A DNA stretch of 63,999 bases, filler included, from Fonticula-like sp. SCN 57-25 (taxonomy: Eukaryota): assembly GCA_001724245.1 (NCBI GenBank). It is 4 parts of 4 records of this genome, joined end to end, with 100 filler letters (N's around TTAATTAATTAA, not from the genome) between each part and the next. Parts side by side here need not be neighbours in the genome. Positions count along the whole stretch, not along the records: positions 36,953 to 51,596 come from MEDX01000156.1; 3 more parts are not named here. The stretch is one strand, 5' to 3'. The notes under the pieces are model-generated. The model made no database searches. It saw only the letters and a list, made by a program, of their open reading frames with translations, and was not told the origin of the DNA. Below are positions 2,621 through 51,696 of the stretch, in pieces (position 1 is the stretch's first letter; every line of letters begins with the position of its first letter). A program made the position numbers and the translations under genes.

Positions 2621-3502
2621 GATGCCATATTAAAGAGTTGCCCATGGGAAGGGAAACGCGGCAGGTGTCGTTCCTGACAATTGCACACAGGGGAAACGAA
2701 ACAGGCACGTCAGATCAATGGGCTTCCTCTAGACGATGCCTCACTGGGATGCAGTTCCAAGAAAGCCGCCTCCAGCGCCGATATCGAAATATTCGAGTCG
2801 TCTTCCCCGTATGTTAGAATATAGCTACACTGGTATGGCATCGGCGTACCTAGCACGTCGGTCGTTGGCGATACGTTCGACGACTTTCGAATAGCGGTCG
2901 CGAGCGCTCGACGAGCTGATGCCGCAAATTGTCAGACCATTAAACAAAAAAAGTGGTCTAACGCACGCATTGGAGCAGCAGGCACCCCGACCCGCTGCGC
3001 TTCGCGCTCCAAAAGAACTCGAACGCGCTGATGACACAAGTCGAGCGGAATTTTGTACTCACTCGCAAGCGACGGCACTAAAATCCCACAGTCAGAAAAG
3101 AAAAAAATTATGCGCACAACGTACGAGTCCCGGGCGCCGTAATGTGCGCCAAGAGCAGCTTGCGGTCAATTTCCTCCGTCCACATCTCGTCGGCAGTGGT
3201 CTCATTGCTCGGGCGAGGAATCACAACGGAAAGGCCTCCCACAGCCGGCAGCGTTGGTGCGGCGCCCTCAGGACGCCGCGTAGGTATCCGAACGATGACG
3301 TGCATCTGTCGCAGATCGTCTGCGTTTTTAACTCCAAAGGCTCGCCAGACACTAGTCGAGCCGCAAGTTAATGCGCTTCCGTATGGCGCCTGCCTGCTGG
3401 GATCGAGAGCCAGTCGCAAATGACGTATGCGATTGGATTCACGTGACTATTCATCAACACCACAACTGCTACGTACATCAGACGCACATTAGAAGTTGTG
3501 CA

Positions 3503-4099: not shown

Positions 4100-4374
4100 G
4101 GTAATGGACATTTTTTGCGGCTATGCGGTATCTAGATCGCAGCCCTGTGCATTGTATTTCTGTATATTTGTCTGTTTGTTTGACCCACCCATTTGTAATG
4201 AAATAAAGTTATGTAAAAATTGATTTAAAACTTTGAACTAGTGCGCAAAAACAACAGTCTGGTACGTACATGCTGCGATACCATCGAGCATGATCGATGA
4301 ATCAAAACGACTGAGAACGTAATACAATGGCCTATAATGCCGTGCACTTCATAAATCCGACTACAGTAAGTGTA

Positions 4375-22082: not shown

Positions 22083-22182
22083 NNNNNNNNNNNNNNNNNN
22101 NNNNNNNNNNNNNNNNNNNNNNNNNNTTAATTAATTAANNNNNNNNNNNNNNNNNNNNNNNNNNNNNNNNNNNNNNNNNNNN
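22083..22182. other. Artificial contig linker N44-TTAATTAATTAA-N44
   Basis: Six-frame stop linker flanked by N runs, identical at three sites. Confidence 0.97.
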
Positions 22183-36852: not shown

Positions 36853-36952
36853 NNNNNNNNNNNNNNNNNNNNNNNNNNNNNNNNNNNNNNNNNNNNTTAA
36901 TTAATTAANNNNNNNNNNNNNNNNNNNNNNNNNNNNNNNNNNNNNNNNNNNN
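36853..36952. other. Artificial contig linker
   Basis: N44-TTAATTAATTAA-N44. Confidence 0.97.
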
Positions 36953-39900
36953 CAGCTATTTGGATGGAGGCGTCAGCGCACCTAACGCCGACTTTGCACG
37001 TCGTCTCCGCGCGCTTCAGGATACTGTACCGCTTGTGGAATACCGCGCGCACGTGCCAGAAATGCGTGCTGCGCTCGCCAGCCTTGGAGTGCTGATTGAG
37101 TCGGACATGTCCGCGCTGGAATCTGACGCAGCCATTGCCGAGATGATGACGGACTTTACGGTGTCCCACTCGACCACGCTGCTTGGCGGCGTGAGGCAGG
37201 CCCTTCACGGTCTCACGCCGGACCAGTGCCGAGTTATCGCCGACCTCCGCGAAGCCAATCACGTGCTTGTCTTTCTACGACAGCCATCCATTCGTACCAA
37301 TAACTCGTTTCAGGCTCTCATGAGCCGCGCGCTGAATCGCGCTGCGGATGACGAGGGAGCGCAGCACGACTTGCATCATCTCACCTTGGTGAGGAGCCTT
37401 GTTGATATCCTTCTCCCTGGTGTCCCCGTCAAGCTGAAGGACCTGGTTGATGCCATGCTCCAATTGAGCGCCCCGTCAAGCCAGCTGCACGATGCTGTCC
37501 GCGCCGTATCCACCAAGTGGGACTTTATATCAAAATACCTATCGGATGATTCAAATGCTGCCGCCTCGGAAAGCACAGCTCGCCTCGCGGACGCTTCGGT
37601 TCGGACTGGCACGCTTACCTCGCGCATTGGCACGGGCGTCGTCTTGAGCTACATGTACTCCCAAGCTCGAGATGGCACCGAGGTTCCTCGCGAGGAGGCC
37701 GGTGAGCAGCTGGAGACCATGGTGCGCCAGGCTATGTTGGCGAAGCGAGGTGCCGCGTCCGTGACCAGCTCATCGACCGTCCTCGACACGTTTGTTAAAG
37801 TTGTCGATTTGGCCCGCCGTGCCCACGCTGCCCACAACCGCCTGGCATCCGAGGGGCACCCCGATCACCAAATTGCGAGCGCGTCTGGTGACGTTGTTCT
37901 AGGACGTCTTGACGAGGACGTCATTACGGCCAGCTTGGATCGCATGGAGAGTGTGCTCAACAGCTGGATAGCGGCGCGCGTGTACATGCTGAGAGCTGCG
38001 CCGCGTCTGTACTTGCTCAGCGACGGCGGCCGCCTACAGATGCTTCGCCATGCTGTTGGTGTAGTGAGACGCCCCGAAATTGCTGCGGACGGTGCCGACG
38101 CTTTGCTGCCGTATGCGCGCCAAATGTTCCGTTCTATTCCTTTGGCCGATCTGGCGGACGCGCTGTTGACTGTGTGTGCCGACCTGGCGAACGAGGTTGG
38201 CCTAGCTGCAAATACTGCTATTCCCGGCGCCGACGCGCCTGAGGCGCAGCTGGCTTGCACTGCGCACATATTCACGTCACGCATGGAAAATGAGTTGCAA
38301 CTTGATGACCGCGACGGCGACCCGACCCAAGAAAGCGAAATTTGCACCGTTGATGTGAGCGACGGTGTCGCGGGCTCTAGTACCGCCGCTAATCGCGAGT
38401 ATGCTCTTTATGCGCACGCCTTGAGCGCCATCTCGACAATGAGCCCCGCAGGCGCGGCACCTCTGCAAATGTTCTGGGCCTCGCCAACGACGACTGCCTC
38501 AATGCTCAAGACGTGGCTCGACTCCATTGCTGCCACACCTGGCCTTGTAGAGTCGGCGGTAATTTTGGCTGCTGACCAGCTTGTGCTGCGGGCTAGGCAG
38601 GTCTTGGTCGAATTCTCTCACGAGAGGCAAGGAAGAGCCGGGTGTGATTTGACCCTTCTGTTTGCATCATCGACGCCCATCGAGTCATTCACACACCTGC
38701 CCAAGGTGGCTATGGTACTGCCGACCCGCGATGAGCAGGCGCGCTCTTTGCGTGCGCCGGCGCCGTTCTCGTCTCAGCCACTTGTAAAGCACATCGCCGT
38801 GGTTGCCGGCGATGCTCAGATGGGCAAGTCGACGTGGATTGATGTGGACGCGGCATCGCGTGGCATTGCCAAGGCGCAGTGTCTCCGTCTGGCCGTGCAC
38901 GAAGGATTTTCCGTCGCTTCCGCAGCGCGCGCCTACACAAAGATGGCTTGCGCATTGGCGCCCAAGCCAGGGAATGGTCCGCCCGGGCGCATTGCTCTGC
39001 ACATTGACGTGTACGACATGGGAGCCGACATCCCGATGCTTGGCCGCTTCCTTCACAATCTGCTCTTTACCGCGCTTCTGATTGACGACGTCACTGGTGA
39101 GGCCGCCGCGCTCAGCGACGGCGTCGAGCATTTCATTTATGTCGAGTTGCCGGCGCTCGCAAAGCTCGACGCGGCAGTGAAACCAGATGGACCGCGTCAG
39201 CCGTGGCCACACGCCAATGTGAGTGACGCGAGGCAGCATCCTTTGCTCCCGCGGCTCGGAGCGGTGTCCATTGCGTCCCATGCCTTTATATTTGTGAACG
39301 CGTCGTCGTTCCCGCTTCGAATTGACGATAACGCGGCTCTTGTTGCGGCGTATTTCGAAGTTGCCGTCGCCCCCGCTGGGTCCGAGGTGCCCTTGCTGCC
39401 CACATCTGTGACCGCCCCGGCCGACGGCCCGGATGCCGACAAGCAGCGCGCGCTCATTCTATGGCTTTTGACCGAGGAGGGTGTGCCACGGACGCCAGGA
39501 GCACAAATGGCGGCTATTCGTGTTCTTTCGCATCGCCTGCTCCATTTGCGGCGCATGCAGGAGGAATCTGCACGCCAGCAACGCGCAAGGCAGTTCCGCG
39601 GTGTGCGCGCATGGACTGAACGAAGCATCCCGCCGAACGTGGCTGCTTTACCCGGCGCCAATGGCCAATATGTTCCTGACTTTTTCCGCATTTGCATTCG
39701 CGTGCTTCTCCGAGAGGCCGCACAGATTGCGGGCGCGCCGCATTCGAATGACCATTCGACGGTCTGGATGACCTCTCCTCGCACACTTCCTAACCAAACG
39801 GCGGTTTTAGTCGCTGATGGAACAATTGATGCGGCGAGGGGATTTCCTCGTGATCAGACTGTTGTTGTCTCGAGCGACATGACCAGCGCGCAATTTGGGC

Positions 39901-42900
39901 ACGTGCGCGCCGCTCTCTCTCAGCACTTTGGCTTCCATGACACGGGCGTTATGGCTTCTCTGCTCGAAGACGCCGGCTTTGTCTTGACTCCTCACCTGGT
40001 TTCGCGTTTGCTCCACGCTCAAGGCAACACGCGCGAAGGCTCAACTGCGTCCTTTATCATGGAGGGCGGGGCTGGCGTCGGGAAATCACAGCTTATGGCT
40101 CTATTGGCTGTGCTGATAAATACCGACCCAAAGCTCTTTGCCCCTCTTAGGGTGCACCTCATTGCTGTACTGCGCGCGGCCGCATCGGCCCGGCTGCAGC
40201 CCAGTCAACGCGGCGGCCGCCGGCAACCTGCTGCCGGTTCGAGCGCACAGGCCCCTGACACGGACGACGTCGTAGCGCTCAGGGCGTTGGCGAACCTGCC
40301 GTGGAGTACCACGCTCGACGCGCTCCTCGGCAGGCTTCAGGCGGTAGTGGACCTGGACCCAGAGCCGCTTGCTAATGCGCTGGGTGTTCCGATGCTTGTA
40401 TACCTCAAGGGGATCATGAATCGGTACCCCATGCAGATGGAAGCGGTGGCTCCGGAAGCGGCGGCGGACCTGAATCGCATCAGCGCGTTGCGCCCCGAAG
40501 AGCTTGAGATGGCTCTTGCCGTTTCTTCGATGGCGACCTACATCCTTCCTCCCTCTGCCCATGGTGAGTTGCCCACTGAGCTCAGCTTTGAGGTTGAGGA
40601 TGAAGTTGCAGTACCTAAGGCGCCCCCAGCACCTTACTCAGGCGACGCGTTTGCGTCCGCGCGCATGTTCAATGGAACCGCTGACTTGCTCCGCTGCGTG
40701 GAGCAGATCTGCAAGGCGCAGACGGGCTCCCCGGGTGTGATTTACCGGCGAATCCTCGCGCATGAGGGCCTCGACGCCGACGAGTGGCACGCGATTGTGA
40801 CCAACGTAACGGCCGACGCGGCTAGGATTGCGAGAATCTCTCCCGAAGCGACGCTTGTCGTGTTCTTGGATGAGCTCAATACGGCTGGCGCACTGGGCGC
40901 CATTGCAGAGACGTTCACGAACCACATGCACAATGGTGCTTTGCTCCCTCCCAACGTTCTCTTTGTTGGCGCGATCAACCGGCGCCGGGAAGCCGACGCA
41001 GGAAACCTGGCCGGCATCTCTGACTTTAGGTTCATGAAGAGCCCGACGGCCGCCTCTCCATCGACGGCAGCCTGGGCACGAGGCAACGTTGTGGAGGACA
41101 ACAAGATGGATTACTTGGCGCGGACTCCTTTTATTGTGCGCGCTCTCCCGTCGTCGCTTGAGGCGCGCGTGTCCACGCACGCCGGCATGTCGGGAACGTT
41201 TCAGCGCGTGTTCTTGGAATCATGCGCAAACAGTCCGCGCATCAGTGGTCTTGCCGATGCCGCGTCGGCCCCGACGCAAGTACTTGACATGATCCATGAT
41301 GCGCAAGAGTTGGTTCGCTCGTACAAGCTTCCTCGCATATCTGTCTCGATTCGCGATTTGCTGCGCGGCCTTCGAGTGTTTGTGTGGCTGCAAAAGCAGA
41401 GGCTCGCGGCACGCCCCAACTTGAAAACGCTTGAGCCGGAGCCGACGAGCATCACGAACCCCTTTTTGCCGCCGAACGTAAATAGCCCGAGACACGTGAT
41501 TGGCTACGCGGCCGTGATGTCGGTGGCTCTCACGTACTGGGCGCGCCTGCCGTCCTCTTCACATAACGCAGCAGGCCTCCCGGCGCCCGATTTCCGCGCG
41601 GAATTTATCGTGTCGCTTGCGCCGCACATCCAGACGCTCATCGCCCACGGTTACCTGCCCCCGTTGGCCTCATTTGGCGCAATTGTAGCGGGCGGTTTTG
41701 ATCACTTGTGGGGTTTTGCGCATAAGCCCGACGGCATTGCCACGACGTCCGGCCTCAAGGAAGCGTTTTGGGCTGTGGTGGTCTGCGTGCATATCAAGCT
41801 ACCGCTGCTGCTCACTGGGCCGCCCGGCTGCGGCAAGACGCTCTCGTTCCAGCTGGCTTCCCTCAATCTCAAGGGCAACGACTCGCCGTCGTACATTTTC
41901 AAAGGCCTAAAGCACATGGTGAGCGAGCCCTACCAATGCTCCGAGACGTCGACGGCAAAAGAAATCAAGGACGTCTTTGAACGCGCTGCTCGTCGCCAGC
42001 GCAACGAGGACAAATACCGCAGTGGCGCGTACGCCGTCGTGGTGTCCCTCGATGAAGCCGGCCTGCCGCCGGAACGCCGCCAGGCTCTCAAGAGCGCGCA
42101 CGATCCCCTCGATGCGCATGACGTGGCCGCCGTGTTCATGTCCAACACAACCTTGGATGAGGCCAAGACGTCGCGCATGGTGCAGGTGCTGCAGAGCCAG
42201 GCGAGCACGGAAGACCGCGAAGCCCTTGCCGTGGGCCTTCTTCTCGGAGACGACAGCGGCCGTGTGCCGGCCGCGAGCGCAGCTGCGCAGAGGCGCACCG
42301 ACGCGGCTCTCAAGCGCATCAAGGGTTTAGTGCGTGCGTTTGCGGGGCTCCGTCGAGTCGTGCCTTCAGAGACGTGGTATGATTCGCGCGACTTTGTCTT
42401 CATCTGCAAGCAGCTGGCGCGCTCGGTGCGTCGCGCGCAAGGCGTGCCTGGCGAGTTTGATGCCATCATGCTGCTGTCGGCGATCCGACGCAACCTTCAA
42501 ACGCTGGAGAAGCGCATGTTCCCTTCGGTCGTTCGGCTGTTCATGACAGAGACGGATCTCAAGCCTCCGCCCCATGAGCTTCCGGTCAAACCAAAGGTGT
42601 TGCAGGTGCTCGGCGAGGCTCTTTCAGACGTGGTCGTACCCGGCCAAGCCTCCAATCCCCCTTTCCGCCACATCATGATCGTTGACCGCAGCGATGCGCG
42701 CAGCGCCCTGGACGTTGTGTGGGGCGATATCGCCAGGCTGGGTGGCAGCAATGGACGCACGCCGCGCATCCTGTCGCTATCCGACTTTCCGGAAGACTGC
42801 TCGCTGACTCAGCACACGGCGTTCCTCGCCGAGCTGCGCGGGTACCTGGAGACGGGCGAGACGGTCATTCTTGTGAACGCGCGCGTGCTCGAGTCGAGCC

Positions 42901-45900
42901 TCTACTCGCTCCTCAACCGCCACTTTTTGGAGGATAGCGCGGGCGGCGCCGTGTTTGTGGCGATGGGCGTCGGTCAGTACAGTCGCACCGTCCGCGTGCA
43001 CCCCGACTTTCGACTCGTGGTTCACGTGCGCCACAGCGAAATTCGCAGCATCCCACTGCCCTTCCTGAATCGCTTTGAGCGCTATGTCATCAGCATGAGG
43101 GACAGCGTGAACGAATGCATTGATAACTATGTTGCGCATCCGCCGGCGTGGCTCTTCAGCACACCCGAGCCCAGCCGCGCCAACTATTTAGAAGAGCTCG
43201 CCCATGGCCTGCGCCGCTTTGTGGCGCACTGCGGCGAGCCGTCCTTCCACGGCCTCGTTCGCGACGAAACCATTGCAACAATCGTGCTCGACACGCTCCG
43301 TGAGAGCGCTGGCCGCACGTCGCTTCAGTGCCCTGCGCCGATCCGCCTGGACGGCGCCCCGATCAATTTTGCCACCACCAGCAGCAGCAGCAGCAGCAAC
43401 GGTGAAGCCCTTCGGAGCATCCTCTGGACCATGTGCTTCCGTCTCATGCAGTGCATGCAGCCGGCTGCCGTCTTCCGCTTGCGCAAGCGTCTCGCTGTGC
43501 CGTTCATTGAAGAGTATGTGCGCGCCCAAGAGCATAACGCGGGCGCCACGGTCCTGCGCGGTCTGCTGAACGGCACAATGCGCCGCGGCGGATGGTTACC
43601 GTCGTCCGACGCGTCGCAGGACGCGCGCGCTCCCCGCATCATGCTCTTTACGCGGACTTCGCGTGACGTCACGACGGTGGCGGCGGACCGGTTCCGCCCT
43701 TTGGCTCAGCTGCTGGATGTGGGCGGCGCGCAGGATGCCGCGCAGGTCGCTGTGGATGACAACGTCCCGCTGCACGTCATGTTCCTCGAGTGGCTCGTGT
43801 CGTCGACCGAGTGCCGCGATGCAGTGAAGCGCTTTGCAAATGCACTGAAGCGCGCCCCCGTCGTGGATGCGAACGGCGCCGCGCCTCGCCCACGTACACT
43901 CTTGGTGTTTGCCGACATGTCGACCGTCACGTCGGATATGGTGACCGACACGCGCCGCTACATTGACGAGTACGTGTCGTCGCCAAACATTGGCGTCGTT
44001 GCGTTTGTCCTGCACAAGCCATCGGTCCAGTTCTTCAAGCCGTGCTATCCGGTGGTGTCTCTCGGGTGGGAGCACATATTTGTCGACTCGTGGGGGTTCA
44101 GCATGAACCACGTGGATGGAGCACAGCCGCTGGACGCGCGTCCGCCCTCGCTCGATGACGCGGACCGCCTGGTGCGTTCCTGGATGCCGGTCATGCACGG
44201 GCTTGTCTCTCCCGACGCGGAAGATCCCGACGCCACGCCCGATGCCATTTTCGCCGCCACGATGCGCCAAGGTTTCACTTCTGCCATCCAGACGCTCAAG
44301 TTTGCGCAGTACCGCCGCCCGCCGCCTGGGCTGGTCGCCACTGCGGCCATTTATAGTGCCGGATCCCCCAGCGGAGCGGCAGTGGCGCTCTTCTCGCAGC
44401 GGCCGTTCATTGGCGAAGCGCTGCAGATGGTCACTGAGCGCATGTGGAAGCGTGATTTGGAGCAGGTGACCGCCGAGTGCACGCAGGAGGAGGCGCACGT
44501 CCCTCTGCTCGCCAGCTTGCGCGACCGTCTCAGATGGCGCGTGCACGACTCTGTGCGCACCCTCATTGCCACGTACATCGGTTGCGACTGGGGACTCGAG
44601 GCCATCGCCGCCATTCAAGACGGCGACGCGCCGGTTGACGTTGAGCTCCGCAACATTACAATGGCTGCAATCCAGTGCTTGGCTATGCTTGATGTGAACC
44701 CGACCGCGGCGTCGATTGCGGCCAGCTCGTCGCGGCCTCCGACCGTTCAATGCAACCGCGCGTTCGTACCGCAGCTGCCGTTGCTTTCCCTCCTTCTTTC
44801 CCTTTTGAGCGACATTGATATGCGCGCAACGATCGCGGCCTCTGATGCCGCAAAGAGCGCGGATAATGTCGGCGCTCAGTTGCCGCACGACGAGTATATG
44901 CGCCAGCTTTTGCGTGCGCCCGAGGCGGCGCCGCTGGCGAGCCTCGTGCACGCTCTTGAAAATGACGCTTCCGACACGCTTTGGGCGCGGTGGCAGTCTG
45001 ACTTTGTGCGTGGAATTTTGCACTTTGCCGACTTGGAATCAAGCGAGGTGCTTGCTGTGACGGCTGTCCTGGACGCTGCTGCGCGCTGTGAACCCACGGC
45101 GAGTACCAGCGCGTCCCCGCATGCCGGCCGCTCACGCGATATTGTGTGGCAGTACGCGAACAGAGACGTGCTGCGCGCCATGGTGGCGCCACTGGTGCAT
45201 TCGCTGCGCGAAGCGCGGGGACTGGCCAGCCCTCAGGCCATGAATGCGATGGTCGCTGCAGCCTCTGCCTCTGTGACGCCCGACTCCCTTGCCTCGCAGC
45301 TCATCTACAGCCTAACGTCGGCCATGCTGGACGGCCTGTTCGAGACCATGCCGGACAATGTCGCCAGCGACATTGATGATGTGTCCCGCGATGAGCAGCG
45401 TTGGTACGATGGCATGCGCAATGCCACGTCGACGGGCCTGCTGCAGTCGCTCTACTCGCTCACGGCGTCCGTTGATCAGGATGATGTGCAAAGGTTGTGG
45501 CTCGGTGCTGCTCTGGCGACGCTTTTTACCGTACTCCGCGCGGCAGTCTCGACGAACGACTTTGCGACGGTCTTTTCTCTGGGCGCGGATGTACTGCGCG
45601 GAGGCCCCCCGTCGGGTTCCATCGAGGAAGGAACTGCTGGACCGGTTGCCGCCGTGACGGATGTCCTGCGGTCCGTCCCCGCCGGCACGTTTACCTCGTG
45701 GTCTGCGATCGTACACACCGCCGTGCTGTGGCTCCTCGAGGCACCGGCCAGTGCCACGCGGCCGTCAGTGTACATTTCTGATGCGCTTCCGGTCCTCGTG
45801 GTGGGCTTGCTCCGCCCCGACGACCCCCGCATGAGCCGATACGCTATCGGCAGCGTGCTTGCGGACCTTTCAGTGAGCAGCCGCGCGGCCCTGCTGCGTG

Positions 45901-48900
45901 CGATCCTGGAGCGCACCGGCCTCGAGATCGACGCCATGCGCACCATCGCGCATGTTTTGGAGGACCTTGTGGAGGGCACGGGTCCGTACATCCCGACTCT
46001 GTGGACCGCCGCTCGGACTGTGCACATGGAGGCGGCCGTTCAGGGCAGCACTTTGCCGCCGCCCCGCTTGACACTGGTCTCTGCGAGCGCGTCCGCGGTC
46101 GTTGACATTGTGTTCCGTGCGTTGTCGCAGATGCTCGCCACGAAAGATAGGGTGACCGGTCTGCCCGAAACGGAGACGGACGCGCTCTCTGGCGGCGCCA
46201 GCGTCGAACTGGCCGCTGCCGCGCAGGATAACCGCATAACGAGCGCCTTGCTGTCGGCCGTGGAAAAGACGCGCCTGCTGACGTTTGTTGGCGAGCGAGT
46301 GGGTCGGCTGCTGGGGAACTCGAACAATGTGACGGCCGACGCGGTTGTTTCGCCTGCGCTGGCTGCCGCCGTCCAAGTATCGCTCAATGACGCGCCCTCG
46401 GAGGCGGGCGCGTATCTGCTGGGGCGCATTGCCCAAGCAAACTCGACGGCCGTGATTTCTTTGCTGCAGCGGGACGATATTCTAGCGTCGCTCGGCCTTT
46501 CGAACTGGCTCTCTGGGCGCCTGAATCAAGGGTCAATTACCGCGCAAGCCCAAGACCTTGACAACTTGAAAAGTCGCTACGTTGCCTCGCTGCATGCGAG
46601 CCGTGCGATTGAAGCCGCGTTAGACACTGCGAACAGCCCATCTTTCTCTGACCTGATTAGCGCTCTTCACCGGTCAAAGGATTCGTCCCTCGCTGCCCGC
46701 GCGCTTCTGCTGATGCTTGACCGAGAGTCGCGCGCGGATCTTCAAATGAACACCTACATTCCGCAGCTTGTGCGCGCCTACGAGTATGCGCGGACGGCCT
46801 TTGCGTACCGGTATACCGAAAGCGAGGCCCTCGTGACGCCGTTTGAAATTGCAGTGAGCGTGCTCCCCCCGGGACAGCGTGCCGCGGGCGAAAGGATTCG
46901 CGATGAGTTTTTGGACGCCTGGGAAAAATTGCGGCTCCAGTTTGACGAGTTCGAGCAGTGCGCTGGTGAACTTGAAGACGCAAGGAAGATCCCCACGCTG
47001 GTTCGCTTCCCTCCGCCAGAGTCGGCCATGCTCTGCGTCGCGCACCTGGTTGAGCTCTCGCTGTCGCCCGGCGAGGAGGCATCGAATCCGTGCGGCAAGA
47101 TCCTGCAGCGCAGACTGTTGCCGTCAATCCACAAAGTTCTGGTGGGCGGCAGCAACGAAGACACGATTGCTCAGCTGAGAGGGAACGACGGAACCTCTTT
47201 GAACCATCGCTCGCTGTTGCTTGACGAGAATTTGTTGGTGTCCAGCCTCAAGGACCTGCCGGCGCACCCCGCCGACGCCGTCCGCTGGCTTGTCACTGGC
47301 TCCTTTGCGCGGCCGCCCAATACCGGCTCCATCCACGACGATGATATATACATTGCGCAGCTCGTGGCAGGTGCGGCTTCTAGGGTGCCCGTCGTCGACG
47401 GTGGGAGCAGCAGCGGATCCTCGGCTGCTGCGCCGCCCACCGCTGATGTCAGTCTCGCGGATATCATCCAGCAGCAGGCATATGCGGAAGGACGAGAACT
47501 GCAGAAGCACGCGCACGATAATAGGTGGCTGATGTGTCCCGCATGCGGCAATGTGTCGGTGTTTTACGAGGGATGCAGTTCGGTTGCGTGCGGTAAGCAT
47601 GCAGCCGATAAAGAGCAGCTAAGAAACACATACGGCTGTGGTACAAAGTTTGTGATCTCGTCAAGCACTAATGCGAATCGTGTGCCCCCGCCTAATGCCA
47701 GTGGTCCTCCGCTCCCGGCCTTTCTCAAGCCGCCGTCGTCGTTATCGTCTTCGCTATCGTCGTTCCTTGAACAGGTGGCGAGTGTTCAGCTGCCGCCAGC
47801 TCGCGCACCGAGCGCGTGGCAGATTGACATTGACGCCGTTGCTCGCGCCCTGATCCCTCGCCTGCTCGCCCACCGGCGGCTGTTTGCTGGAAGCGACAAC
47901 ATTGTCAAGCTTGACCCGTTCTTTGCGCCGCTGCCGACGCTCTCCGAGTCGCGCTCCGTTGCCCCCGACGAGCCCGCTGCGCCTCCCGCGCGGTCTGTGG
48001 CGCCCGACGCTGCCGTGCGACTCGAGCAGTACGCGGCCCGCCTGCACCTGCTCGGCGGCCATGCCGGGCAGGTGTCTCTCTGGGCGAGCGGCAACTCGGC
48101 CGACAATCAGCTGCAAGACCAGATGCTGCAATTCGCGATGCAGCGGACCCCGAGTGAGGTCGCCGCGTCCGTTGAGCAGCTCGTGTCGGCCGCCGAGCAC
48201 CTCATCGAGGTCGCGGAGCAGCCCGAAAGAACGCAGGAGGCGAGCGCGACGCCCGCCACCGCGACGCAGCCGCTCTCGTCCGCTCTGGAGGCGCACTTTG
48301 CCACCCCCACGTGGACGCCTCTTGTGTCCGATTGGCTCCGCCTGATGCCGCCGGTCTCGGCCGACATGCCGGCCTTGTCGCAGCGCTTTGCCCAAATGTG
48401 CGACGTGGCTCTCAAGGCGCAGCGCGCGCGTCGCTACTCAACGTACCCCGAGCTTAACAGCGCGATGCCGGGCGCGCTGGACCAGTCGGTGCGCACTGAG
48501 CTGGTGGCGCTCGTGCGCGCCGCCCACGACGACAGCGCCGAAGCGATGGACGCGCTGCGCGCCAACATTCAAAACTTTGCCTCGACCGTCATTGCCTGCG
48601 AGGACGACGTGGCGGCTGCCAGCTTCGCCGACGACGCGCTGTTTACGATCCCGTCGGTGGCGGCCGCGCTCGCCACCAGCAGCAGCGACATTCTGAGCGC
48701 ATTCACGGCAGTGTCCAACGACGCCGTCCTCGTGAGGCATCTCGGCGCGTCGCTGCGCGTCCTCGACGACGCGCTGGCGAGCATCACGAGCCTGCAGCTG
48801 GAAGCAGCCGCGGGGGCAAGCAGCCTCGTTCACACTGTTTCGGTCCCACGCGAGTGGATGCACGACGCGGGCGCGGATGATGCCGCGCAAGCGGCAAGCG

Positions 48901-49745
48901 CGCCGCCCCACGTGGACGCTGCACGGCAGCGCGCCGAGGACATGTACCGCGCCATGGGCGATTCGCATCTCACAATGTTGGCGGCCATGTCTGCGGGGAC
49001 AGAGCCGCCGGCCTCCGCGACGGACAGCGACAGCGCGGCCAACGACTCGCCGGACGCGCCGCCGGTGATCCTGCCGCGACGCGCCGATCCGCTCTTCCGG
49101 CTTATGGGCGCATTGCAGCTGACGGACAGTGCGGCTACAAGCGCGCTCAAGACGCCGCGGCGGTTTGCGTTCGACCCGGCGCCGCCGCCGCCGCCCAACA
49201 CGAGAGCCGCGCAAGCGCCATCAAACGCGCAAGACGCACCTGCAGCTCCTCTGATTACGTCACCTCTGACAGCGCCTGTGACTGCGCCTGTGACTGCGCC
49301 TCACGAGGTGGGCGTGCCGGCCGAGGCTGCCCAGGCGGCAGAACGGAGCCCGACGGCCCCGACAGGGATTCCCATTTCCGCGTGCGGCGGACTCAATCTG
49401 TCGGCCGTGAAGCGTCTCGTGCGCCGAAAGGCGCTAAAGTGGGAGACGCCGCAGCAGGTATCGGTGACGATCGAATCGTGGAACCAGATGCAGAACAACG
49501 CCGAGATGCTCGCGGACATTGCAGATGATCGCATACGCGCTGATCCTAACCTTGCCGCGGTGCCATTCGAGGAGGTGATGAAGAAACTGCAGGCGGACCT
49601 GGAGACGTTTTTCGTGGCAAGAAGTGCCCCGGCTGCTGTCGGCAACGCCCCGTTTGTCCACCGGGAAAGCGGCGAGCTTGCCCTTCAAGCGGACGACTAC
49701 CGCGAGTGGGCTGCTCACCTGGACAGACTAGCATCGCAAGCTTAG
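36953..49745 (+). CDS. Giant RNF213/mysterin-like multi-AAA+ ATPase / putative E3 ligase (5'-truncated, >4260 aa, intronless)
   Basis: Frame open from gap edge. Walker A motifs GDAQMGKST (~38808), GGAGVGKS (~40065), GPPGCGKT (~41818). Walker B VFLDE (~40860) and SLDEAG (~42045). YQCSETST and GETVILVN..LYSLLN..VHPDFRLVV blocks are colinear with RNF213 AAA4/AAA5 as recalled. Confidence 0.85.
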
Positions 49746-51596: not shown

Positions 51597-51696
51597 NNNN
51601 NNNNNNNNNNNNNNNNNNNNNNNNNNNNNNNNNNNNNNNNTTAATTAATTAANNNNNNNNNNNNNNNNNNNNNNNNNNNNNNNNNNNNNNNNNNNN
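51597..51696. other. Artificial contig linker
   Basis: N44-TTAATTAATTAA-N44. Confidence 0.97.

Follow-up and report, generated by a model that had tools for sequence, protein, structure and literature searches.

Introduction

RNF213 is, to our knowledge, the only known E3 ubiquitin ligase that couples a dynein-like ATPase to cysteine-based ubiquitin transfer, and we know of no established origin for its RZ finger. According to PMC11549300 and bioRxiv 10.1101/2025.10.14.682297, the zinc ligands of the RZ finger are C4505, H4509, C4525 and C4528, with C4516 as the nucleophile and H4537 as the base; ZNFX1 shares this spacing, and ubiquitin is bound by an N-terminal helix. In RING-between-RING (RBR) ligases, the Cys of the GGC motif of RING2 (Rcat) is the catalytic residue, Cys357 in ARIH1 and Cys431 in parkin (PMC8567218). 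Here, a stretch of 63,999 nucleotides (nt) from Fonticula-like sp. SCN 57-25 (assembly GCA_001724245.1), hereafter the window, was analysed for a giant RNF213-like AAA+ gene that encodes a small Rcat-like putative one-zinc module. A sequence-only reading of the window had proposed that an RBR-type Rcat was swapped in for the RZ finger of this protein, giving an AAA+-regulated E3 with no RING1-IBR, and this interpretation is partly supported by the analyses below. The window consists of four joined pieces, with spacers of the form N44-TTAATTAATTAA-N44, carrying stops in all frames, at 22083-22182, 36853-36952 and 51597-51696.

Results and discussion

A single cysteine cluster in a giant RNF213-type protein

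The 3' part of the giant gene lies at 36960-49745 on the plus strand, to which all features below belong, and translates as a single unbroken frame of 4261 amino acids (aa; 4261 codons plus stop). The 5' end of the gene is outside the window, the source piece beginning at 36953; the database copy of the protein (P0002, 4923 aa) has 662 additional N-terminal aa, none of which is encoded in the window. The AAA+ core (aa 1593-2064, 41736-43151), with the Walker A motif GPPGCGKT, aligned in a phmmer search of all PDB sequences with the RNF213 chains 9jwg, 8s24, 9g08, 9jw1, 6tax, 6tay, 7oim, 7oik and 9i1i (E 5.7e-30 to 1.2e-26), so that a dynein-like AAA+ core homologous to that of RNF213 is present, and the giant protein matched no AAA+ protein other than RNF213 in the PDB at E<=10. 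Since RNF213 chains are the sole PDB matches of this segment, the label 'RNF213-like' is justified for the ATPase core, as the sequence-only reading had it. Pfam, scanned over the whole open reading frame, placed AAA and AAA_5 in the core just under their cut-offs and gave no match outside it, with no RING, IBR, RZ or CBM20 among the matches. Downstream of aa 2064, neither phmmer of the protein nor the family profile A2 searched against the PDB gave a match to RNF213.

The module, WLMCPACGNVSVFYEGCSSVACGKHAADKEQLRNTYGCGTKF, covers aa 3523-3564 (47526-47651). It is flanked upstream by GGSSSGSSAAAPP and downstream by SSSTNANRVPPPNASGPPLP...SSLSSSLSS. The motif and flanks had been described from sequence as WLMCPACGNVSVFYEGCSSVACGKH...YGCGTKF at 47524-47655, and this string is indeed found in the open frame as aa 3523-3564, inside those limits, with the start at 47524 being 2 nt off the codon phase. 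The Cys and His residues of the module are C3526, C3529, C3539, C3544, H3547 and C3560. From the alignment, the proposed zinc ligands are C3526 (47535-47537), C3529 (47544-47546), C3544 (47589-47591) and C3560 (47637-47639), leaving C3539 (47574-47576), the Cys of the 'GC' pair, as a candidate ubiquitin-accepting nucleophile.

The module lies ~735 aa before the C-terminus and ~1,460 aa past the RNF213-matched AAA segment. In the 4923 aa of P0002, with an overall Cys content of 0.95%, it is the sole CxxC and the sole 35-aa span with five Cys. Five Cys per 35 aa were reached in 60 of 5000 residue shuffles (composition-only p ~0.012); this is modestly significant, and the conservation of the cluster in its family is the stronger evidence that it is not a chance feature. 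A string search of the 4923 aa found neither a canonical RING cluster nor a CPNGH-type RZ finger elsewhere, which is how the protein had been described. It also has no RING1, the only Cys cluster being the module itself, and no IBR (BRcat), there being no second Cys-rich stretch, so the module does stand alone.

Conservation of the module among relatives

Relatives of the C-terminal region were collected by an exhaustive phmmer search with aa 3150-4261 against 1.84 billion representatives, which returned 28 proteins at E<=1e-3, including the query protein, and 16 at E<=1e-10. A word-index search for homologs of aa 3380-3680 returned the query protein only, and none with alignment A2. A CPxC-type string is present in 15 of the 27 other relatives. 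Fourteen of these were aligned with the window's own stretch, from -60 to +85 around the first Cys, to give alignment A1 (15 members), and the remaining one, P0028, was omitted for its different, fuller Cys pattern. C3526, P3527, C3529, C3539, C3544, C3560 and G3561 (columns C61, P62, C64, C74, C79, C95 and G96) are invariant in all 15 members; G3538, G3545, a Gln of the preceding helix and a Pro of the tail are nearly so, and H3547 is unconserved. The GC cysteine, on whose retention in homologs the proposed chemistry depends, is therefore kept throughout A1. The family consensus reads h-C-P-x-C-x4-E-R-x2-G-C-x-H-[LM]-x-C-G-x-P-x2-P-Y-...-G-C-G-x2-h-...-N-x-R-V-P-x-P-...-P-x-L-P-x-F.

A regular-expression search over the 48 proteins collected gave 21 motif rows with 18 distinct strings. 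The giant protein probably comes from a stramenopile alga. Every named carrier belongs to the ochrophyte stramenopiles, namely Mallomonas annulata (P0007, 5680 aa), Chlorochromonas danica (P0036, 5406 aa) and Chrysophaeum taylorii (P0045, 4961 aa). Collinearity between P0007 and P0002 extends over aa 555 to 4609; P0007 has the module as its sole Cys cluster, one isolated CYRC elsewhere and no CP-x-GH string. The C-terminal flanks of P0045 are unrecognised by profile A2, and the module is therefore conserved beyond its surroundings; Pfam matched IBR_2 on the zinc stretch of P0045 (E 0.026). The Rcat-like string of P0045 is at aa 4122-4155, and the same protein also has a VWA_2 match (E 2.2e-5, under cut-off) and an RNF213-type AAA core.

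The omitted relative, P0028 (695 aa), matched the family profile with an hhalign probability of 92.9% (E 3.7e-7). Its aa 571-695 contain CPRC-x9-C-x4-C-x4-C-x4-C-x2-C, a string like that of a two-site (two-zinc) IBR/Rcat, in which C4 and C5 are closely spaced and an additional FCxxC is present, and its IBR_1 match extends over model positions 3-36 of 47. To judge from this pattern, the module may have undergone less reduction in P0028.

Similarity to the first half of RBR RING2/Rcat

When the 15 members of A1 were scanned singly against Pfam at E<=10, IBR_1 was matched by nine (best 1.6e-5), IBR_2 by seven (best 0.0021) and IBR by two, and every non-IBR family by at most one member. In whole-protein scans, IBR_1 was found in 4 of the 18 proteins scanned, over positions 3/4-24 of the 47 in the model and thus its first half, and no IBR-type match rose above its curated cut-off. 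The A1 profile, searched against 177,635 distinct PDB sequences, gave seven matches at E<=10, led by 1wd2 (RING2 of HHARI, E 0.0095), 9c5e (parkin, 0.011) and 2lwr (fly parkin, 0.015), with two further parkin entries at E 0.14-0.22. The alignments to 1wd2, 9c5e and 2lwr are gapless from CPxC through the Cys after x-H-M-x, with the family GC placed on GGC and hence C3539 on the first Cys of GGC-x-H-M-x-C. A phmmer search with the 83-aa motif stretch itself gave nothing meaningful in the PDB (AvrSr27 at E 0.25, FYVE at 3.3).

The AlphaFold2 model of A1, a 22-residue helix followed by short hairpins, has a pLDDT (predicted local distance difference test) of 75.6; residues 31-80 reach 85-94, and the loop at 81-90 is weak. 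In a Foldseek comparison, RBR ligases (RNF216, parkin, HOIP and HOIL-1) made up 25 of the 27 best PDB rows listed, at E 0.12 or worse. The best structural matches of the module are HOIL-1 RING2 and parkin. In the ESM Atlas feature comparison of the window's own 145 aa, IBR-family clusters took the top three places (score 0.91; 165, 163 and 160 of 256 features shared). Each single score is weak, and jointly they point toward IBR/Rcat. What the module resembles is thus the first zinc site and catalytic loop of an Rcat and not an RZ finger, in line with the sequence-only reading: the top PDB profile matches are HHARI and parkin RING2, IBR-type models lead in Pfam, and no RZ model appears in the 15 members.

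The likeness extends to particular residues. The RING2/Rcat domains of HHARI/ARIH1, parkin, HOIL-1, HOIP and RNF216 have the same C-P-x-C-x9-C-x4-C spacing; their E-K/R-x-G-G-C-x-H-M-x-C is mirrored by the family consensus E-R-x2-G-C-x-H-[LM]-x-C; and a later Cys followed four positions on by a hydrophobic residue (C-x3-F), as well as a helix before the domain, are shared. The spacing of the first Rcat zinc site with a Cys in the loop (C-x2-C-x9-C*-x-H-x2-C-...-C) is thereby present, with all five Cys invariant, at weak scores. Unlike an Rcat, the module has this first site only, and the second (C-x2-C...H/C) is replaced by an N-x-R-V-P-x-P tail; unlike RBR ligases, its host is an AAA+ giant in which RING1 and IBR are absent. 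No Cys or His after C3560 is conserved in any of the 15 members, and the incomplete second zinc site that had been noted from sequence is accordingly a family-wide trait rather than decay of one gene.

On these data we lean towards regarding the module as a tethered single-zinc unit descended from, or built like, the N-terminal half of RBR RING2/Rcat and carried by an RNF213-type AAA+ giant. Several observations weigh against this. The whole-protein IBR_1 matches all score 17-21 bits against a cut-off of 27, the best PDB profile E-values are only ~0.01, the longer profile A2 has no PDB match at E<=1, and the ESM Atlas recognition value, 2086, falls short of 2300, the tool's typical figure for known families. 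None of the IBR models has a match at E<=10 in the window's own sequence. The module lacks the second Rcat zinc site; its C4-C5 loop, with 14-29 aa in the family, is poorly predicted (pLDDT 53), whereas Rcats have short C4-C5 spacing; the His at C+2 is Ser in the giant protein (C3539-S-S3541); there is no RING1 to bring an E2; and, if one zinc is bound, which of the five invariant Cys is free is assigned by alignment only.

Some of these points would also fit a generic zinc ribbon that is Rcat-like by convergence and unrelated to ubiquitin transfer, a CPxC knuckle with a second Cys pair being a common solution. The window's own stretch weakly matches only Zn_ribbon_3 (E 0.0014-0.046, under cut-off) and Cys_rich_KTR in Pfam, the Rcat scores are all sub-threshold, and three other RNF213-like proteins, two from Haliotis (P0046 and P0047) and P0048, bear plain CxCG...CxxC ribbons that lie comparably far from the C-terminus. 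Convergence nevertheless seems improbable to us, as four independent kinds of evidence (Pfam, PDB profile, fold and language-model features) all put IBR/Rcat first, the match reaches past the knuckle to E-R/K-x2-G-C-x-H-[LM]-x-C, and P0028 has a fuller IBR-like string.

A histidine kept in most motifs at one of two positions

The His two residues after the GC cysteine had been reported as replaced by Ser, which is correct for the giant protein, and C-x-H is kept in 8 of the 18 distinct family motifs. His occurs at C+2 only in seven of these motifs, in the first eight loop residues after C4 only in eight, at both sites in one and at neither in two; the two sites come near to mutual exclusion (Fisher p 0.015, uncorrected for relatedness). 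A nearby His, at C+2 or in the early loop, is thus present in 16 of 18 motifs, which suggests, from the sequences compared, that the family may retain a general base at either of two positions. In A1, the sites in question are the columns near C74 and the loop between C79 and C95 (aa 3541 and aa 3546-3552 of the giant protein). In the giant protein, the loop His is H3547 (47598-47600), unconserved as a column and situated in the loop where members without the C+2 His mostly bear a His, and it is possibly a relocated general base.

The same residues bear on whether the module is catalytic at all. A non-catalytic IBR/BRcat-like zinc ribbon of the same fold and origin could have a structural role or bind ubiquitin, an E2 or another partner, with the fifth invariant Cys as a structural residue or alternative metal ligand. 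The matched Pfam families carry the IBR name, the C+2 His is missing in the giant protein and in 10 of the 18 distinct motifs, and the second zinc site and RING1 are both absent, all of which would agree with such a ribbon. The profile, however, aligns gaplessly to RING2 rather than to IBR and places the invariant Cys on the catalytic one; C3539 is invariant in 15/15 members though surplus to a four-ligand site; and the nearby His is kept in 16/18 motifs. We therefore consider a non-catalytic ribbon unlikely, though less so than convergence.

Comparison with the RZ finger of RNF213

The module and the RZ finger of RNF213 and ZNFX1, as the latter is described in the cited reports, are both small one-zinc modules with a candidate nucleophile Cys between two ligand pairs, preceded by a helix, flanked by flexible linkers and located toward the C-terminus of an RNF213-type protein, and the proposed E2-to-Cys transthiolation chemistry would be shared. 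The arrangement of ligands differs. On the published residue numbers, the Cys/His offsets from the first Cys are 0, +4, +11, +20, +23 and +32 in the RZ finger and 0, +3, +13, +18, +21 and +34 in the module. The RZ finger thus has the pattern C-x3-H...C-x2-C, its nucleophile being at +11 and its base His at +32, and the module has C-x2-C...C...C, its nucleophile being at +13. The two showed no similarity in the sequence and profile comparisons.

The superficially similar offsets would accord with a diverged RZ finger with shifted ligands and the topology knuckle, free Cys, knuckle, with a helix before, in the same type of protein and at a similar distance from the C-terminus. This candidate was dropped: it needs H3547 for the second knuckle, which is unconserved, and the conserved fourth ligand is C3560. 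The RZ pattern C-x3-H-x6-C-x8-C-x2-C-x8-H, searched as a regular expression with slack, and its C-x3-H...C-x2-C string are in 0 of the 48 proteins collected; no RZ Pfam match was found in the 15 A1 members at E<=10, in a library copy whose RZ model is unconfirmed; and the A1 profile matched no RNF213 chain at E<=10, although such chains are in the PDB set. We regard a diverged RZ finger as very improbable.

Human RNF213 has a total length of 5207 aa. With this length and the RZ numbering of PMC11549300, its RZ finger lies ~700 aa from the C-terminus, compared with ~735 for the module; the distance from the AAA segment to the RZ finger is ~1,300 aa, by construct numbering with an assumed 40-aa tag and the same RZ numbering, versus ~1,460 here. 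As whole proteins, the two thus share an AAA core homologous over ~470 aa, giant size and a zinc module at a similar distance, and differ in that the giant protein has no RING or RZ string and no detectable similarity to RNF213 over its C-terminal 2,000 aa. Foldseek with an 801-aa AlphaFold model of aa 3160-3960 (pLDDT 73.4) gave no PDB match at E<=0.001, and RNF213 chains appeared at E 1.9-3.6 on ranks 8, 16 and 46, amid unrelated helical proteins. Because the C-terminal region has no sequence or significant fold match to RNF213, the 'comparable position' rests on chain distances only. The proposed swap in place of the RZ finger accordingly stands as regards the similar distance from the C-terminus and is undemonstrated as regards replacement; 'in place of the RZ finger' is a positional analogy.

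Proposed mechanism and implications

We infer the following scheme for the favoured one-zinc Rcat-like module. C3526, C3529, C3544 and C3560 would hold one zinc ion, and C3539, free in the loop between the knuckles, would be loaded with ubiquitin by a Cys-reactive E2, forming a thioester, before handing it on to a substrate. The helix in front of the module (aa 3499-3520), together with H3519 and with H3547 in place of the C+2 His, may aid the positioning of donor ubiquitin and general-base catalysis. Because there is no RING1-IBR, the E2 would be recruited elsewhere in the C-terminal region, and the AAA+ core may gate the activity, as in RNF213.

No earlier description of an RNF213-type protein with an Rcat-like module was found in the literature searched, which lay outside subscription journals and supplementary files, and the pairing, in ochrophyte algae, of a motor of the RNF213 type with an Rcat-like module that is half-size and stands alone appears to be new. 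It is possible, if still doubtful, that RNF213-type AAA+ machines recruited Cys-based ubiquitin-transfer modules more than once, namely the RZ finger in animals and, in ochrophytes, a minimal active one-zinc Rcat with its general-base His at either site. If so, the occurrence of the same motor with an Rcat-type module in a sister lineage would show that motor and catalytic finger are separable. The module would also be the smallest natural Rcat and a natural test of the minimal requirements of one, namely a single zinc and a movable His in the absence of RING1-IBR; half of the domain would then be able to function apart from the RBR triad, provided that E2 docking is supplied by an AAA+ scaffold. 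The family would point to giant algal ubiquitin ligases, which may serve defence or organelle surveillance, like RNF213 in animals.

Surroundings of the module and zinc ribbons of other lineages

The 801-aa model has four parts, namely a helical domain, a disordered linker, the helix with the zinc module, and further helices. No other part of the C-terminal region is as well conserved or as confidently predicted as the helical domain (aa ~3229-3449, 46644-47306), which has pLDDT 86-97 at model residues 71-170 and mostly 74-92 up to 290, and in which four residues (G, F, W and C) are invariant in alignment A3. Many relatives match this part alone, including many short database fragments, and no matching fold or family was found for it. 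That it docks the E2 is speculation. It is followed by a linker of 48 aa rich in Gly, Ser, Ala and Pro (aa 3450-3497, 47307-47450), which is predicted to be disordered (pLDDT <50 at model residues 291-338) and would tether the module flexibly.

The helix before the module (aa 3499-3520, 47454-47519; residues 34-55 of the A1 model, pLDDT 85-94) terminates in a conserved A-H (H3519, 47514-47516) that is invariant in A2. Beyond the module, the conserved Pro-rich tail N-x-R-V-P-x-P...P-x-L-P-x-F (aa 3573-3588, 47676-47723) stands where the second Rcat zinc site would be; in A1 its consensus is RVPxP..LPxF with P113 nearly invariant, and it is predicted with pLDDT 84-95 at model residues 101-120.

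Alignment of the C-terminal regions across different RNF213-like lineages was unsuccessful. Among 13 other AAA-core relatives (Z 1e6), profile A2 matched P0036, P0007 and P0039, and partly P0040 and P0041, and left P0045, P0048 and the two Haliotis proteins unmatched. In the Haliotis proteins P0046 (aa ~4198-4216) and P0047 (aa 4041-4054) and in P0048 (aa 4068-4088), all found via the AAA core, there is a plain CxCG-x13-16-CxxC ribbon with no Cys between the knuckles, ~750-890 aa from the C-termini. These three ribbons have no Pfam match, and the zinc stretch of P0039 likewise has none to IBR or RZ. The pattern hints that the location tolerates different small zinc modules in different lineages.

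Two further AAA-core relatives, P0037 and P0038, are 2.5-kb fragments that share 39-40% identity with the giant protein in the AAA core. No Pfam ubiquitin domain was detected in P0002, whereas P0037 has a ubiquitin-family domain at aa 735-802 (E 4.7e-11, above cut-off), upstream of the ATPase, and P0038 likewise, a circumstantial link to the ubiquitin system.

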